Part shown: piece by piece, positions 7,114 through 54,426 of the stretch
Layout: each line of letters opens with the position of its first letter
How positions within the stretch are numbered: the first letter of the stretch is position 1
DNA from: Octopus sinensis
Lineage: Eukaryota
Assembly: GCF_006345805.1 (NCBI RefSeq)
Contig: NC_043014.1
Coordinates: 9,982,001-10,046,000, forward strand
Length of the DNA: 64,000 nt
Direction of reading: 5' to 3'
Program-made: the position numbers and the translations under genes
The notes under the pieces: model-generated
Seen by the model: the letters and a program-made list of their open reading frames with translations, nothing else
The model's database searches: none
Told to the model about the DNA's origin: nothing

Positions 7114-8610
7114 GTCAAAATAGAAAATGCTAAAATAATTTTATAAAGAACATTTCAGTACCGGTTTCGGTCATTTTGAGACCTTTTCAACTGTAACGAT
7201 TAAATAATTAAATTTAGAAAAATTAAAAGAAAAGTTTTTTTAAAGGAATATTTGTATAGTGTTCACATATAAGTGGCATTCAGCCTTTCTCTGTCTCCCT
7301 TGTTTGCACTTGTGTGTTCGAGGTCTGGTTATTAGCAAGGGATTTCTCTAAATATTTACCGGTTTGCTCATAGTTAGATATATGCAGTAGAAACACGTGT
7401 GGGTCGAATTGAGGTTGAATTGATATATAAAAGTGAATTAAAGATAATGCTAATACCACATCGTAATAATCCCTATTGTGTATATATAGAGATATATATG
7501 TGTGTGTGTGTGTATAAATGTACATATCGGTGTGTGTGTGTGTTCGCGTGCGTAGATAAATACGAGTACGTATATATGTATAGTTAGGTAGATAGATAGA
7601 TGAAACTTATAGAAAAACAAAAGACGAAGATAGGTGTATGAACAACAAGCAGTTGTATTAGGGTTGACGCTCGGACAAATTTAGAAGTTTTTTATGTTTC
7701 GAGCCTACGCTCTTCGACAGAAAGGAATGACAGAAAATACACAGAGAGAGAATGCAAAAAAATATGGTGGATTTAGAGGTCAAACATGGCGAATCATTAG
7801 AAGAAAGGTTTAAAGGAAGAGTTTGAAAGAAAGGGAAATAATAAAGTGCTGGTGATCCAAAATGAAGCTGCGCGTGTGTATGTGAGAATAGTGTGCGTGA
7901 ATGTGCGTGTGTGAATGGGGGCTAGTTGCTCTTACTTATGTGAGTGTGTGTGTGCATATGTAACGTGTGTGTGTGTGTGTATGTGTAATAGGGGCTAGTG
8001 GCTCTGACTTGTGTGAGTGTATGCATGTGTAAGTATGTACGCCTGTAACTTGTGTGTGTGTTGCGCGTAGCAGTTAAGGTGTGTTTTTTGACGTGTTGTT
8101 TATGTATGTGTGTTTGTGTGTGAGTGTCTGTGTGTCTGTTTGTGGTCAAATAGTATGCGTGTGTATGGTGCATATATGTATGTAGTGTGTGTTAATGTGT
8201 GTATGTATATATAGCCTGTTTTCAAGTATTAGGTGCTTGTGTGGGTGAGTATATATTGTCTCTGTTTAAGTATTATATCCTTGTATGGATGTGCGAGTGT
8301 GCATGATGGTGTGTGGTGTGTGTACTGTGTTACATAGTGTGTGTGGCTGTTCATAGAGTGGTATGTGTGATGAGGCTATTGAAGTATACAACGACCTCGA
8401 ACCCAAATTTGTAAACAAGAGAGACAGAGACAGGCAGAAACAAGGGAAATGCCACTTGTATTTGAACACTATGCATATATTCTTTTAAAAATCTTTTCTT
8501 TCAATTTTTCCCAAATTTAATTTTTTTCCATAGAGTTGAAAAAGTCAAAATAATTGAAACCGGTACTGAAATATTTATTATAAAATTATGTTAGCATTTT
8601 CTATCTTGAC
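7114..8610. repeat. Inverted repeat pair of about 215 bp (7114-7325 and 8393-8610), Penelope pseudo-LTR-like
   Basis: Arms are diverged reverse complements, e.g. atttcagtaccggtttc / gaaaccggtactgaaat. Each arm carries a hammerhead-like motif. (TA)n at the left edge. Confidence 0.7.
7156..7193 (-). ncRNA. Minimal type I hammerhead ribozyme, U3-A8 core variant
   Basis: Minus strand: CAG TTGAAAA GGTC-tcaaaat-GACC GAAA CCGG TA CTG. Confidence 0.6.
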
Positions 8611-8805
8611 CACAAACACATATATACTAAAATGGATGTCGTGTTAAAACATACAAGTCTACTTTATTCTCCACGAGCGATCCTATCATATGTTCTTGTG
8701 TTATATCTAAGCCCTCCTGTTTAAATCGGTGACGGATGATAATCGTCCGTTGCATTTACGAGACCTACCAGCTCACGTGATTGAGCTTTCTCCATGGCAG
8801 ATTTT

Positions 8806-9035
8806 GGAGGCGCGTGACTTAGTTGGCAGTGTGTTGGACTCATGGTCGTAAGATTGTGGTTTCGATTCCTGGACCATGTGACGCGTGGAGTTTTCACATT
8901 GCTTTAATCCACTCAGCTGACAAAATGAGTAATCCCGTGGCAGACTAGTGACTCGTCCAGGTGGGTAATCTATACGCCATGGAAACCAGAAAACCGGCCA
9001 TTATGAGTCGACATGCCACGAGAAGGTAAATTTAC
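8806..9035 (+). mobile_element. Degenerate SINE family C
   Basis: ggaggcgcgtgacttag head, B box ggtttcgattcc, ccactcagctg segment. Confidence 0.7.
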
Positions 9036-9039
9036 CTTT

Positions 9040-9579
9040 ACTCTTTTTACTTGTTTCAGTCATTTGACTGTGGCCATGCTGGAGCACCGCATTTAGTCGA
9101 GCAAATCGACCCCAGGACTTATTCTTGGTAAGCCTAGTACTTATTCTATCGTTCTCTTTTGCTGAGTTACGGGAAGGTAAACACACCAGCATCGGTTGTC
9201 AAGCGATGTTAGGGGGACAAATACAGACACACAAACACACTCACACACATATATATATATATACGTATATATATCTACAACTTCATCGGTACATTTACAC
9301 TCTCTAAGATGTTACTAATTGATTTGAGAACTTTACATTATTAGAAAACCTATATGAAATTAGCTGAAGATTACTTGACATATTATATTTGCTGTAATAT
9401 TTGCAGCTTTAATAAATTGTTATAGTATGAAACAATTGTACTAAATTACCGGATCCATTCTTGTTGCTTATTTTTTTGGTTATAATCACCCCACAATATT
9501 TTATGGGTAATACTATAAAGAATTCTGGTGCATCTAAATTAAGTACCATATTCATTTGAATCTAAATTGTTTTGCTGAA

Positions 9580-9614
<35 letters not shown>

Positions 9615-9778
9615 GGCAGGCTTCTTTCAGTTTTCGTCTACGAAATCCACTCACCAGGCTTTGATCGTCCCGAAGCTATAGTTGAAGACACTTGCCCCAG
9701 ATGCCACGCAGTGGGACTGAACCCGGAACCATGTGGTTCGTAAGCAAGCTTACTTACCACACAGCCACTCTTACTCCT
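9040..9778 (-). mobile_element. SINE family D split at its internal (TA)n by a hammerhead-bearing insert (about 9275-9582)
   Basis: Tail half at 9040-9260 and head half at 9612-9778 are colinear with intact family D copies. Confidence 0.8.
9360..9444 (+). ncRNA. Type I hammerhead ribozyme, long stem II, partly decayed
   Basis: TTAG CTGAAGA [tTACTTGACA...TGTTAtAGTAt] GAAA CAATTG TA CTAA. Confidence 0.6.
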
Positions 9779-10219
9779 AAATTTATGGCAGACGTCCAGC
9801 TTTACACGTGTGTGGAAATCCCGACATTTGTATCTATTTAAGCACTTGTGTCACAAATACCTCTGGGATTATTAAAATTAATTGCGGTACGAAAAGATTA
9901 CATTTATCTCCCACTAAAAGTGAAAGTTTTCTTAGAACACACAATACTGCGTTATTTGCCATAAGACGCACTCACGGAAGAAATTATGGGTCATATTAGC
10001 ACTCGTATTTAGATCGCCGAAGAGGGTTGCGACAGGAGAAACCGCCATGTGTCTGCATATTCTGTCAAACCGCCTGGGCTGCGACTGCAGGAACCTCCAG
10101 GTATCTGCGTACTCAGTCGAAACGGACGTCTGCCGTAGAGAAGCCAAATAAATGACGAAATCTCTTGATCTGGATATGTGGATAAGATAATGAATAAAGT
10201 TCTTTCGGGAGTCATACAG

Positions 10220-10437
10220 ACTCATCGGGCCGGTTTCCGTCTTCTCTGGCGTATATTTCCTCCACCTTGGACGGGACGCCGGTCCATCAGAGGATTTTTT
10301 GCCAGCTGAGTTGACAGGAGCAACATGAAATGAAGTGTTTTGCTCAAGAACCCAATCTATCACCCGGTCCGAGAATCGAAACTACAATATTGCGATCATG
10401 AGACCAACACCTCTAACCACTAAGCCACCTGCCTCTG
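10220..10437 (-). mobile_element. SINE family C
   Basis: Reverse complement of the family C consensus (ggcttagtggttag; gatggaccggcgtcccgtcc). Confidence 0.75.
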
Positions 10438-10978
10438 CATCTCGTGATCTGGCAATTACGTCGTGCACAGCAGACGATTATCGCTCATCAGCGATGGGAA
10501 CCTAAGTGCACCACAAGTCAATACGTGAAGTCCTCCCATAGTATATACTGCGGTGTTCTGTGTTCTAATCCAACATCCAATTTTAGTGCGAGATAAACAT
10601 TAGTTTTTTGGTATTAATACAGCTTCTGTCATTATCGATCTCTGCTTAATAAGCTCACTGGCTATTTGCCATATCAGTGTCTCAATAGATAATGAGATTC
10701 TATTTGTCGATGACAGTAGAATTAGACGGCTGTATATAACCGGATGTCTGTCATTGAACAGCCCAAGAAATGCGAAATCAAGTGATCTTGCTGTTCCGGC
10801 AGGTGAGACTCGCAATGATTGACCGTCAGCGATGTAAAGACGAGTGTCTGTATACACCACACCTTCATACAAGAACCTCTCATTATAAATGATGCAGTAT
10901 TGTGTGTTCTGACATCCATTTTCAGCGTGAGTATTAACTTTTTGTATTAATACTGTTTCTCTCACTATTAATTATGTA

Positions 10979-11017
<39 letters not shown>

Positions 11018-52870: not shown

Positions 52871-53162
52871 TATTGCCTACAGGGGGCTAAACATAGATGA
52901 AATATACAACGAGGGATAACATAAAAGGGGCTGACAAAGGGATTTAGTCGATAATATCTGGTACTTATTTAATCAACCCCGAAAGAATGAAATGCAAATT
53001 TGACCTCGGCAGAATTTGAAATCAGAACGTAAGGGTAGACGAAACACGGCTAAGAATTTCGCCCTGCGTGCTAACGATTCTTGCACCTCACTGAAGCTAG
53101 TTTTCTACGTCTCACAATAAGAAAAGAAAATACTTCGACGCTGTTCTGGAGCGTTCACTTCA

Positions 53163-53554
53163 TCTTATATATAAAACTGTAGTTGTGTCAGTGTCTGTCC
53201 CCTTCGATTTAGATTCCTAACTACTCCTCCCATTTGCGGTGCAGTTTAACCAAAACCGGGTATCTTATAGTCGTGATTCATATCGAGCCCTTCTGGGTAT
53301 TAGCGCGCGTCTACGATGAGTCTACGATTTAAAATAATTTACCATCATTTTTTTTCCATTTTCATGCATATTTTTTTAAAGGGAAGTAACTCTCTAAAAA
53401 TGTCTACGATGAGTCAACGATTTAAAAAAAAAATTACCATCATATTTTTTCCATTTTTAATGCATTTTTTTGCTATTTTTTGGCTATAACTCTCTAAAAA
53501 TGCTGTATAGTTATTTCCCTTACAAACCCGAGCAACGCCGGGCAATACGGCTAG
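53163..53554 (+). mobile_element. Non-autonomous Helitron
   Basis: A|TC start and cccgagcaacgccgggcaatacggCTAG|T end. Confidence 0.9.
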
Positions 53555-53934
53555 TTCTAGACATAATAACATCGTAAAGAACTAAACGCCCTTCAGGTGT
53601 TAGTTGTTTTTGTTATCAACGTACATTCTGAATTTGGTTCATGATAAAGTGTGCTATTTCACATAATTGGTAAATTGATACAGAAAGTATCAGGGAAGTC
53701 TATGTTGGAAAATATTTACAGAGAGCGTCAGCTAAGGTATGATTAGTAATTACATGGTGAGATGAGATTACGGCGAAGGCTGGATTCGAGACGTAGCTAT
53801 TAGTAATTATTGTGCGTGCATATATATATATATATATATGTGTGTATAATGTGTGTGGTTGTGCGCGCGTGTGTGTATGCATATATATATATATATATAT
53901 ACATGCATATATTATATATCTACCTACATAAATA

Positions 53935-53965
<31 letters not shown>

Positions 53966-53983
53966 TGTGTGTGTGTGTGTGTG

Positions 53984-54018
<35 letters not shown>

Positions 54019-54217
54019 TATGTTTGTGTTTGTCCCCCCCAACATCGCTTGGCAACCGATGCTGGTGTGTTTGCGTCCCCGTAACTTAGCGGTTAGGCGA
54101 AAGACACCGATAGAATAAATACTAGGCTTACAAAGTATAAGTCCTGGGGTCGATTTGCTCGACTAAAGGCGGTGCTTCACCATGGCCACAGTCACATGAC
54201 TGAAATAAGTAAAAGAG

Positions 54218-54249
<32 letters not shown>

Positions 54250-54366
54250 GCTGACGAAAGAATTTTTATTTTTAGATATAACTGGGGTACTTAAATGCAC
54301 TCATGTTTTTTGCTTCGGCTTTTTCCATGGGCGCATCTAAGTATCTTATTTATATTCTCTCGTAAG

Positions 54367-54426
54367 CTCTACTGAAGACGAATAAATCTTTTATGAGATT
54401 AATTCCGAAATTGATTCAATATAGAG
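54367..54426 (+). ncRNA. Type I hammerhead ribozyme
   Basis: CTCTA CTGAAGA cGAATaAATCT-tttatg-AGATTaATTCc GAAA TTGA-t-TCAA TA TAGAG, within a roughly 430-bp segment between (TA)n tracts. Confidence 0.7.

Follow-up and report, generated by a model that had tools for sequence, protein, structure and literature searches.

Type I hammerhead motifs of Octopus sinensis probably belong to Hydra- and Neptune-type Penelope-like elements and to non-coding tandem units that end at TA microsatellites

Penelope-like elements (PLEs) of the Hydra clade that bear a hammerhead and insert at TA repeats have already been published, including from an octopus: Hydra-1_Obim of Octopus bimaculoides combines a (TA)n preference with a canonical hammerhead (PMC8557442 supplement; Craig et al. 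2021). Non-coding tandem units termed retrozymes have been described in animals by Cervera and de la Pena 2020 (PMC7229834) and in the preprint of Li, Clavereau and Pollet 2026 (10.64898/2026.07.22.740005). Concerning the mechanism, a PLE protein tested in vitro was found to nick AT-rich DNA and to initiate reverse transcription downstream of the hammerhead, at fixed sites inside an RNA that is mostly unprocessed; the hammerhead of this element is assisted by protein and can be dispensed with in vitro (PMC11167929). We analyzed 64,000 nucleotides of Octopus sinensis (assembly GCF_006345805.1, contig NC_043014.1, positions 9,982,001 to 10,046,000 of the forward strand), hereafter the window, for which an earlier reading of the bare sequence, the original prediction, had proposed one dispersed system of hammerhead elements inserted in (TA)n microsatellites. 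Very probably, the folds are type I hammerheads lying in the terminal repeats of PLEs (Hydra-type for the families named A and C, Neptune-type for F) and in tandem units (B, D and E) likely copied in trans. The window families are other families than the published ones; a 21-nt piece of the Hydra-1_oBim hammerhead also has 14 occurrences in this genome (control 0).

The window has 36% GC (64% AT), is rich in simple repeats and belongs to a genome of 2.72 Gb. Seven type I hammerhead folds were located, with C3 and H17 at 7190/7159 (-), 9364/9440 (+), 13993/13915 (-), 23838/23888 (+), 28962/28911 (-), 29149/29099 (-) and 54372/54421 (+), and all positions checked, together with the stem III words, agree with those first proposed. 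Family A comprises the folds at 23833 and 29094, B that at 13909, C that at 9360 (with a sister subfamily at 39555), D that at 28905, E that at 54367, and F those at 7156 and 8535. The core boxes CUGANGA, GAAA and UH, or the double change from C3-G8 to U3-A8, are present in the seven folds but not in the decayed or half copies at 8535, 13475, 14613 and 39555. Stems I, II and III surround this core, stem I being open-ended. Self-cleavage is predicted 3' of H17.

With such an AT content and so many simple repeats, one could assume that the folds arose by chance. However, a first descriptor, which required a palindromic stem III in addition to the core boxes and to stems I and II, gave five matches in the window versus a mean of 0.01 (maximum 1) in 100 block-wise dinucleotide shuffles. 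It missed both family A copies because their stem II is bulged. A bulge-tolerant descriptor recovered six of the seven folds, whereas 60 shuffles gave no match in 53 cases and one match in 7; applied to 918 kb of loci, it gave 215 matches versus 0-2 per shuffle (5 shuffles). The fold at 29094 (-) fails both descriptors, yet it is 94-95% identical to the one at 23833 (+). At the genome scale, a pattern restricted to hammerheads whose stem II region spans 45-65 nt and whose stem III has six bases had 29,912 matches, versus 166 for the reversed pattern. The comparison with dinucleotide-shuffled sequence that had been proposed as a check thus separates the window clearly from its controls, and the probability of chance folds is practically negligible. 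The hammerhead motifs are genuine. Among the 150 of 177 matches listed by an Rfam scan of the window, there was no hammerhead family and only microsatellite-driven noise.

Stem covariation, another check suggested beforehand, is seen as compensatory changes across the C-lineage subfamilies: in 12 sequences, 94.9% of the cells are paired and 8 of 13 pairs are changed on both sides. None of 500 shuffles reaches this level, a count that is not a probability, these being related sequences from which the structure itself was drawn, and slid controls pair at most 40%. In families B, D, E and F, the copies resemble each other too closely for covariation to show. The loop closed by stem III has 0-2 bases, so that this stem cannot form in a monomer, but can form between two copies, with a self-duplex of -6.4 to -11.2 kcal/mol. 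Free-energy folds, which were not used as support, recovered stems I and II for most copies, did not recover stem III as a monomer, and proposed alternatives for 9360 (+) and 29094 (-). Family F displays the U3-A8 core throughout, and 97 of the first 100 matches listed for it read TTGAAAA; this core is active in vitro (PMC3088659). Among young elements of a Hydra family related to A, we also observed the core CCGAAGA (U4C) with a G.U at the base of stem II and intact 717-aa open reading frames (ORFs) in L238, L241 and L242, U4C being found in 8 of 28 A-lineage cores counted, overlapping loci included.

One might wonder whether the hammerheads are catalytically silent relics or protein-binding signals in elements that move without cleavage. 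Such an idea could draw on the atypical cores of young families, since U4C is reported to lower activity (PMC3088659), on the weak in vitro cleavage of minimal PLE hammerheads (PMC4209133) and on their dispensability for in vitro insertion (PMC11167929). On the other hand, the double change from C3-G8 to U3-A8 in family F and the compensatory stems indicate selection on the catalytic fold, and we regard silent hammerheads as unlikely.

For each family, the genome query gave 1,414-2,581 first-look candidates. Forty of these were scored, and the loci retained are the best-scoring 20-30, some of them overlapping. The best copies are 82-96% (A), 94-99% (B), 90-97% (C), 93-98% (D), 85-95% (E) and 97-99% (F) identical to the window copy. 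A parent of family F is locus L181, where two F hammerheads lie 4,386 bp apart around a reverse transcriptase (RT; Pfam RVT_1, E 4.6e-8), its frames also containing a CX4CxxC linker and a C-terminal endonuclease; the N-terminal frame of this family was not recognized by Pfam. In 120 listed homologues of L181 (44-62% identity), the RT (PF00078) is found in all and GIY-YIG (PF01541) in many, the few named ones coming from bivalves or their symbiont assemblies. The L181 ORF displays the features of Neptune elements, namely an RT, a CX2-5CxxC linker with a long spacer and, at the C-terminus, GIY-YIG with CCHH, and its linker and spacer agree by eye with the Neptune rows of the published alignment (PMC8557442 supplement). 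Judged by these motifs, family F is probably the pseudo-long terminal repeat (pLTR) of a Neptune-type PLE. At another locus, a frame resembling a Wnt exon (L183:7175-7528, -) lies at most about 300 bases from a family F insertion that is inverted.

Family C has its parent in L221, where an 816-aa frame containing DKT and CxCX5C lies between two C hammerheads that are 98% identical and about 4.0 kb from each other. Frames of 842-1,124 aa in its sister subfamilies add RWK and CxxC..E..N..E. The RT motifs are MRWK and SDKT in the A-related L242, IRWK and ADKT in L226 and L222, and IRWA and ADKT in L230; by eye, the alignment of L242, L230 and L226 shows the CxCX5C linker, then CxxC and CxH around conserved E and N, without CCHH. 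The Hydra-type C-terminus also presents the IY..C/Y.G..R..NH pattern, and its homologues carry only PF26215/PF28514. In-frame Asn-rich low-complexity inserts of variable length, up to a few hundred residues in all, were noticed after the RT and before the endonuclease in the ORFs of L222, L223 and L226-L228. As to family A, L185 and L187 link its hammerheads to a Hydra-type endonuclease, which they flank in L185, and in L046 the hammerhead runs into the start of an ORF with an RWK motif. A relative about 78% identical (L238, L242) is a complete 2.58-kb element with a 717-aa ORF. Protein searches gave 14,724 and 22,695 first-look candidates, many with open frames, and about 56 of 150 endonuclease matches listed share one bit score (hand count). 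On the basis of these motifs, A and C are probably pLTRs of Hydra-type PLEs.

The other three families look different. Hammerheads of family B recur every 556-585 nt in 22 of 30 loci, those of E every 506-509 nt, and D offers one clean case at 495 nt. The units have 31-35% GC, a longest ATG-initiated ORF of 38-45 aa, only trivial mutual likeness and no match to the PLE loci examined; with lengths of 583, 495 and 509 nt for B, D and E, outside the typical retrozyme range of 150-450 nt, they are classed as retrozyme-like only. Because no parent was located, their mobilization in trans by PLE enzymes, which we consider likely, rests on the shared target, tandem, inversion and end pattern. Short B matches in PLE-bearing loci were considered as a parent link and discarded, being old copies in the flanks. 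One could then imagine that, rather than mobile RNAs, these three families represent pLTRs orphaned from PLEs yet to be discovered, or satellites amplified locally at the DNA level. The missing parent, in a search limited to about 90 PLE-bearing loci, would fit this idea, as would some arrays that are local duplications taking in the TA flanks (L117/L121, L135/L141). But copies 94-99% alike occur on many contigs with unrelated flanks and TA junctions of their own, and read-through reaches the next hammerhead after 495-583 nt without an ORF, which makes orphan repeats or satellites rather improbable. Contigs from four sequencing runs, presumed to be RNA, span the greater part of the B unit but show neither joints nor ends, and are neutral on expression. 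Words of family B also occur in runs under five organism labels, so the family is common to related species or labels; none of the listed runs that contain the sequence is on record as RNA.

Altogether, the proposed diverse, high-copy, TA-targeted population of Penelope elements and retrozymes is borne out, with RT and GIY-YIG-type parents for three of six families and tandem non-coding units for the other three. It is not a single dispersed system: PLE lineages of Hydra and Neptune type, several in number and independent of each other, occur together with non-autonomous units.

The TA target also holds outside the window. A (TA)5 starts at most 40 nt from the 3' end in 104 of 146 loci, versus 1,995 of 36,000 background flank positions (5.5%); this sets a per-locus test against a per-position control, with four loci lacking a 3'-end match and the window's own loci left aside. 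By family, the figures are 13/25 (A), 21/29 (B), 17/22 (C), 19/24 (D), 19/22 (E) and 15/24 (F). In the window, TA tracts border every intact copy, and the decayed copy at 8535 (+) retains a short remnant only. The terminal duplications reported earlier are likewise present, direct at 13909 and inverted at 23833, 28905 and 39555. Empty sites could be recognized: the repeat split by the family C copy at 9271-9585 has its left and right parts 1-80 nt apart in seven other copies of the window.

All TA-bound 3' ends lie at least 38 nt downstream of the predicted cut (range 38-304 nt), at two to three discrete sites per family, such as 55-56 and 88-100 nt for F and about 190 and 297 nt for B. The element joins the TA run directly in 103 of 138 TA-bound ends, and 46 of these 103 direct joins share a microhomology of at least 3 nt with it, versus 5.7% expected. 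Direct joins are 3 of 19 in family A, where (CA)n mostly intervenes. At the family A loci L002-L020 and at 23930-23958 of the window, the 3' end is mostly followed by (CA)n and then (TA)n, in contrast to the other families; this could reflect a compound target or repeats added on insertion. No family lacks inverted 5' pieces, which were seen in 3-9 of 25-33 loci. As most copies have lost their 5' part by truncation, it is the hammerhead-bearing 3' end that accumulates. Target duplications are unreadable inside microsatellites.

The copies of the window and their surroundings are as follows.
7104..7325, minus strand: 3' pLTR fragment of a Neptune-type PLE by its motifs, family F, 98-99% identical to both pLTRs of the full element L181.
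7156-7193, minus strand: hammerhead of this fragment, H17 at 7159, with a U3-A8 core; (TA)n at 7072-7103.
8388..8610, plus strand: decayed family F copy, 80% identity; core from about 8536, stems broken.
9051..9800, plus strand: host interspersed repeat interrupted by the family C copy; its left part covers 9051-9270 and its right part 9614-9800.
9271..9585, plus strand: 3' pLTR fragment of a probable long Hydra-type PLE, family C, 96% identical to the L221 pLTRs.
9360-9444, plus strand: hammerhead of this fragment, H17 at 9440; the fragment sits within the TA tract of another repeat.
13475..13503, plus strand: 3' half hammerhead of a further family (stem III CATATG), 93% over 29 nt.
13722..14494, minus strand: family B, about 1.3 copies of the 583-nt non-coding unit, with direct terminal repeats of about 185 nt.
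13909-13999, minus strand: hammerhead of the family B copy, H17 at 13915; (TA)n at 13687-13721 and 14494-14529.
14613..14796, minus strand: decayed copy (76%) of another hammerhead family, with a mutated core.
23237..23930, plus strand: family A, 3' end of a probable short Hydra-type PLE, with an inverted 5' piece at 23237-23357.
23833-23893, plus strand: hammerhead of this first family A copy, H17 at 23888, followed by (CA)n(TA)n.
28783..29046, minus strand: incomplete copy of the 495-nt non-coding unit of family D, carrying an inverted 5' piece at 28995-29046.
28905-28968, minus strand: hammerhead of the family D copy, H17 at 28911; (TA)n on both sides.
29057..29162, minus strand: second family A copy, hammerhead at 29094-29154, H17 at 29099.
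29221..29790, plus strand: 3' end of a different Hydra-type ORF, degenerate and interrupted by stops and frameshifts; its endonuclease region shows CxxC...E...N...E.
39423..39720, plus strand: 5'-truncated inverted insertion of a sister subfamily of C, 94-96% identical to the L227 pLTR.
54246..54679, plus strand: incomplete copy of the 509-nt non-coding unit of family E, between (TA)n tracts at 54218-54246 and 54678-54723.
54367-54426, plus strand: hammerhead of the family E copy, H17 at 54421.

The repeat at 9051..9800 is presumably similar to a short interspersed nuclear element. Both degraded copies of the original prediction find an explanation in this list, the one near 8535 (+) as a relative of the 7156 family and the half copy near 39555 (+) as two 3' hammerhead halves of a Hydra subfamily placed back to back (39423-39506, minus; 39530-39720, plus), with (TA)n at 39727-39782. 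The decayed hammerhead at 14613-14796 (-), the half at 13475-13503 (+) and the endonuclease fragment at 29221-29790 (+) had not been listed before. A minus-strand RT at 29200-29800, suggested by an FLDV word, was ruled out, as related loci show a plus-strand Hydra endonuclease.

Several other features of the window were noticed. At 40343-40387 (+), a short piece resembles by eye the region downstream of the family A hammerhead, with (TA)n at its end. Consecutive frames of 134 and 144 aa at 12669-13508 (+) give the impression of part of a retroelement ORF, the end of which overlaps the half hammerhead at 13475. A Helitron occupies 30185-35773 (-), with three overlapping frames (31024-33252, 33105-34418 and 34280-35773) that match PIF1 helicase (E 1.7e-64) and Helitron_like_N (E 2.9e-59); the first frame holds a 147-nt tandem repeat, and a hairpin and CTAG-type end lie near 30185. 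The region 43499-47497 is a 4-kb degenerate TA array with a strong strand bias, its GC falling to 12% with G nearly absent from the plus strand in 44001-46000, and 50766-50865 is a 100-base assembly gap (N).

Beyond the window, the family F pattern has 1,886 genome-wide matches (control 0), which brings the two narrow patterns together to 31,798 motifs, or 11.7 per Mb. Stem III hexamers are perfect palindromes in 34 of the first 50 matches listed for the first pattern (hand count), about 14% being expected under the pattern by our estimate. This pattern catches only a minority of folds, namely 2 of 7 in the window and, in the roughly 461 kb that flank the loci, 4 of 16 non-focal folds, and we therefore extrapolate from the counted figure to 50,000-120,000 hammerheads genome-wide. 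Non-focal folds amount to 35 per Mb in the flanks, which are biased to repeat-rich DNA, and five random 10-kb stretches (50 kb) contained one hammerhead, a sample too small to count alone. At least 12 further hammerhead families, including other U3-A8 cores with a short palindromic stem III, were seen in the flanks of L007, L012, L017, L023, L034, L035, L046, L055, L086, L128, L132, L135, L224, L225 and L227.

How could such insertions arise? We propose that a GIY-YIG endonuclease would nick the (TA)n tract and that reverse transcription would begin inside the RNA, at two to three fixed sites that lie 38-304 nt downstream of the hammerhead and often coincide with 2-8 nt of TA-like homology in the RNA. 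It would then pass through an uncleaved tandem (or circularized) transcript, while the hammerheads would cleave slowly, as dimers via the palindromic stem III or with protein help, and trim read-through transcripts to unit length. As the 3' ends lie downstream of the cut and a cleaved linear monomer would offer no template for them, the template should be either a circle or a tandem left uncleaved, and the latter is the one that we favor for A, C and F.

It is possible, although we give it less than even chances, that the elements, or at least B, D and E, depend on a circular RNA as obligatory template, produced by double hammerhead cleavage and ligation and copied by rolling-circle reverse transcription, as in the retrozyme model. 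The position of every measured 3' end would suit a circle, as would B insertions longer than one unit, with the tandem hammerheads mentioned above, and stems and palindromes kept under selection; circles have moreover been demonstrated for coral, mussel and axolotl retrozymes (PMC7229834). However, uncleaved tandem transcripts yield identical junctions and are the dominant substrate in vitro (PMC11167929), and contigs without joints are unable to separate circles from tandem DNA. A bolder and more doubtful proposal would be a live Penelope-retrozyme community with some 50,000-120,000 hammerheads, in which intact young Hydra elements copy the 495-583-nt non-coding circular RNAs of B, D and E into TA microsatellites by homology-assisted internal priming. 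If true, it would link animal retrozymes to a named mobilizing enzyme, and the priming mode would differ from that of the one PLE studied in vitro.

Several points weigh against our preferred assignment of the folds to PLE terminal repeats and trans-mobilized units. Several cores are atypical: stem II has a U.U at its base in C and is bulged in A, stem I measures 3 bp in F, and a young A-related family carries U4C. The loci of the TA test are the best-scoring copies, 20-30 of 40 scored among 1,400-2,600 candidates, some overlapping. Pfam at its cut-offs matched none of five Hydra-type fragments, the Hydra and Neptune labels rest on motifs rather than a tree, and no autonomous parent for B, D and E was found among about 90 PLE-bearing loci. 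Neither cleavage nor a transcript end nor a circle was observed, the runs guessed to be RNA yielding contigs only. Finally, hammerhead mutants left the insertion unaffected in vitro, where the start site is not homologous to the cut DNA (PMC11167929), a result that weakens any required role of cleavage as well as the microhomology step.

The class being known, the surprise is limited and the value lies in the material. The identity of the enzyme that mobilizes animal retrozymes and the function of the PLE hammerhead are questions served by intact young Hydra ORFs (717 aa), by non-coding passengers that share their target and the pattern of their ends, and by natural variants of the core (U3-A8, U4C, U.U) that number hundreds to thousands of copies. 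In this genome, many TA microsatellites have served as insertion sites, which is relevant to repeat annotation. The idea that annotation would overlook this population has to be given up, since Hydra PLEs are published, octopus family included (PMC8557442), and 31 PLE families with recent activity are catalogued in a curated annotation of Octopus vulgaris, the sections consulted making no mention of ribozymes (PMC13282606). In the literature searched, mostly open-access and exclusive of Repbase, Dfam and the deposited octopus library, we found no paper counting cephalopod hammerheads or describing these units, nor any report of this copy number, of 4-5 kb Hydra elements with Asn-rich inserts, of long non-coding units or of short TA microhomology at 3' junctions. 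The families may already be in Repbase, Dfam or the library deposited with PMC13282606, and the species table of preprint 10.64898/2026.07.22.740005 may bear on priority.

A parallel can first be drawn with the Hydra clade (PMC8557442), with which the elements described here have in common a C-terminal endonuclease region, recognized here by its motifs, the RWK, DKT, CxCX5C, CxxC and CxH motifs, a type I hammerhead with a small palindromic stem III, (TA)n insertion and 5'-inverted copies; the CTC-g-GAG stem III is found in the published Hydra-2_aMil and Penelope-16_HM as well. The C lineage differs by its 4.0-4.8 kb and ORFs of 840-1,120 aa with Asn-rich inserts, versus 'generally <3 kb' in that publication, by a 50-60-nt stem II region and by its large copy numbers (the 14,724 and 22,695 first-look candidates). 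At 2.58 kb, the A-related L238 is within the Hydra-typical <3 kb, a size that is typical and not diagnostic. With regard to the Neptune clade (PMC8557442), family F has the U3-A8 core known from Cercyon PLEs of Schistosoma (PMC4209133). Like metazoan non-LTR (long terminal repeat) retrozymes (PMC7229834; preprint 10.64898/2026.07.22.740005), B, D and E are low-GC non-coding tandem units with one type I hammerhead each, beside PLEs; they differ from them by their length (495-583 nt versus typically 150-450 nt) and by short, dispersed arrays that end in (TA)n with PLE-type inversions. The 31,798 motifs counted exceed the printed figures for coral (>6,000), mussel (~5,000) and Xenopus (~9,000 minimal motifs), axolotl reaching up to 120,000, with counting methods that differ between studies. 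Lastly, Poseidon PAc of the green anole (Frangieh et al. 2024, PMC11167929) also shows few fixed 3'-end sites downstream of the hammerhead and an AT-rich target, but the ends described here, unlike the PAc start site, often share 2-8 nt with their TA target.

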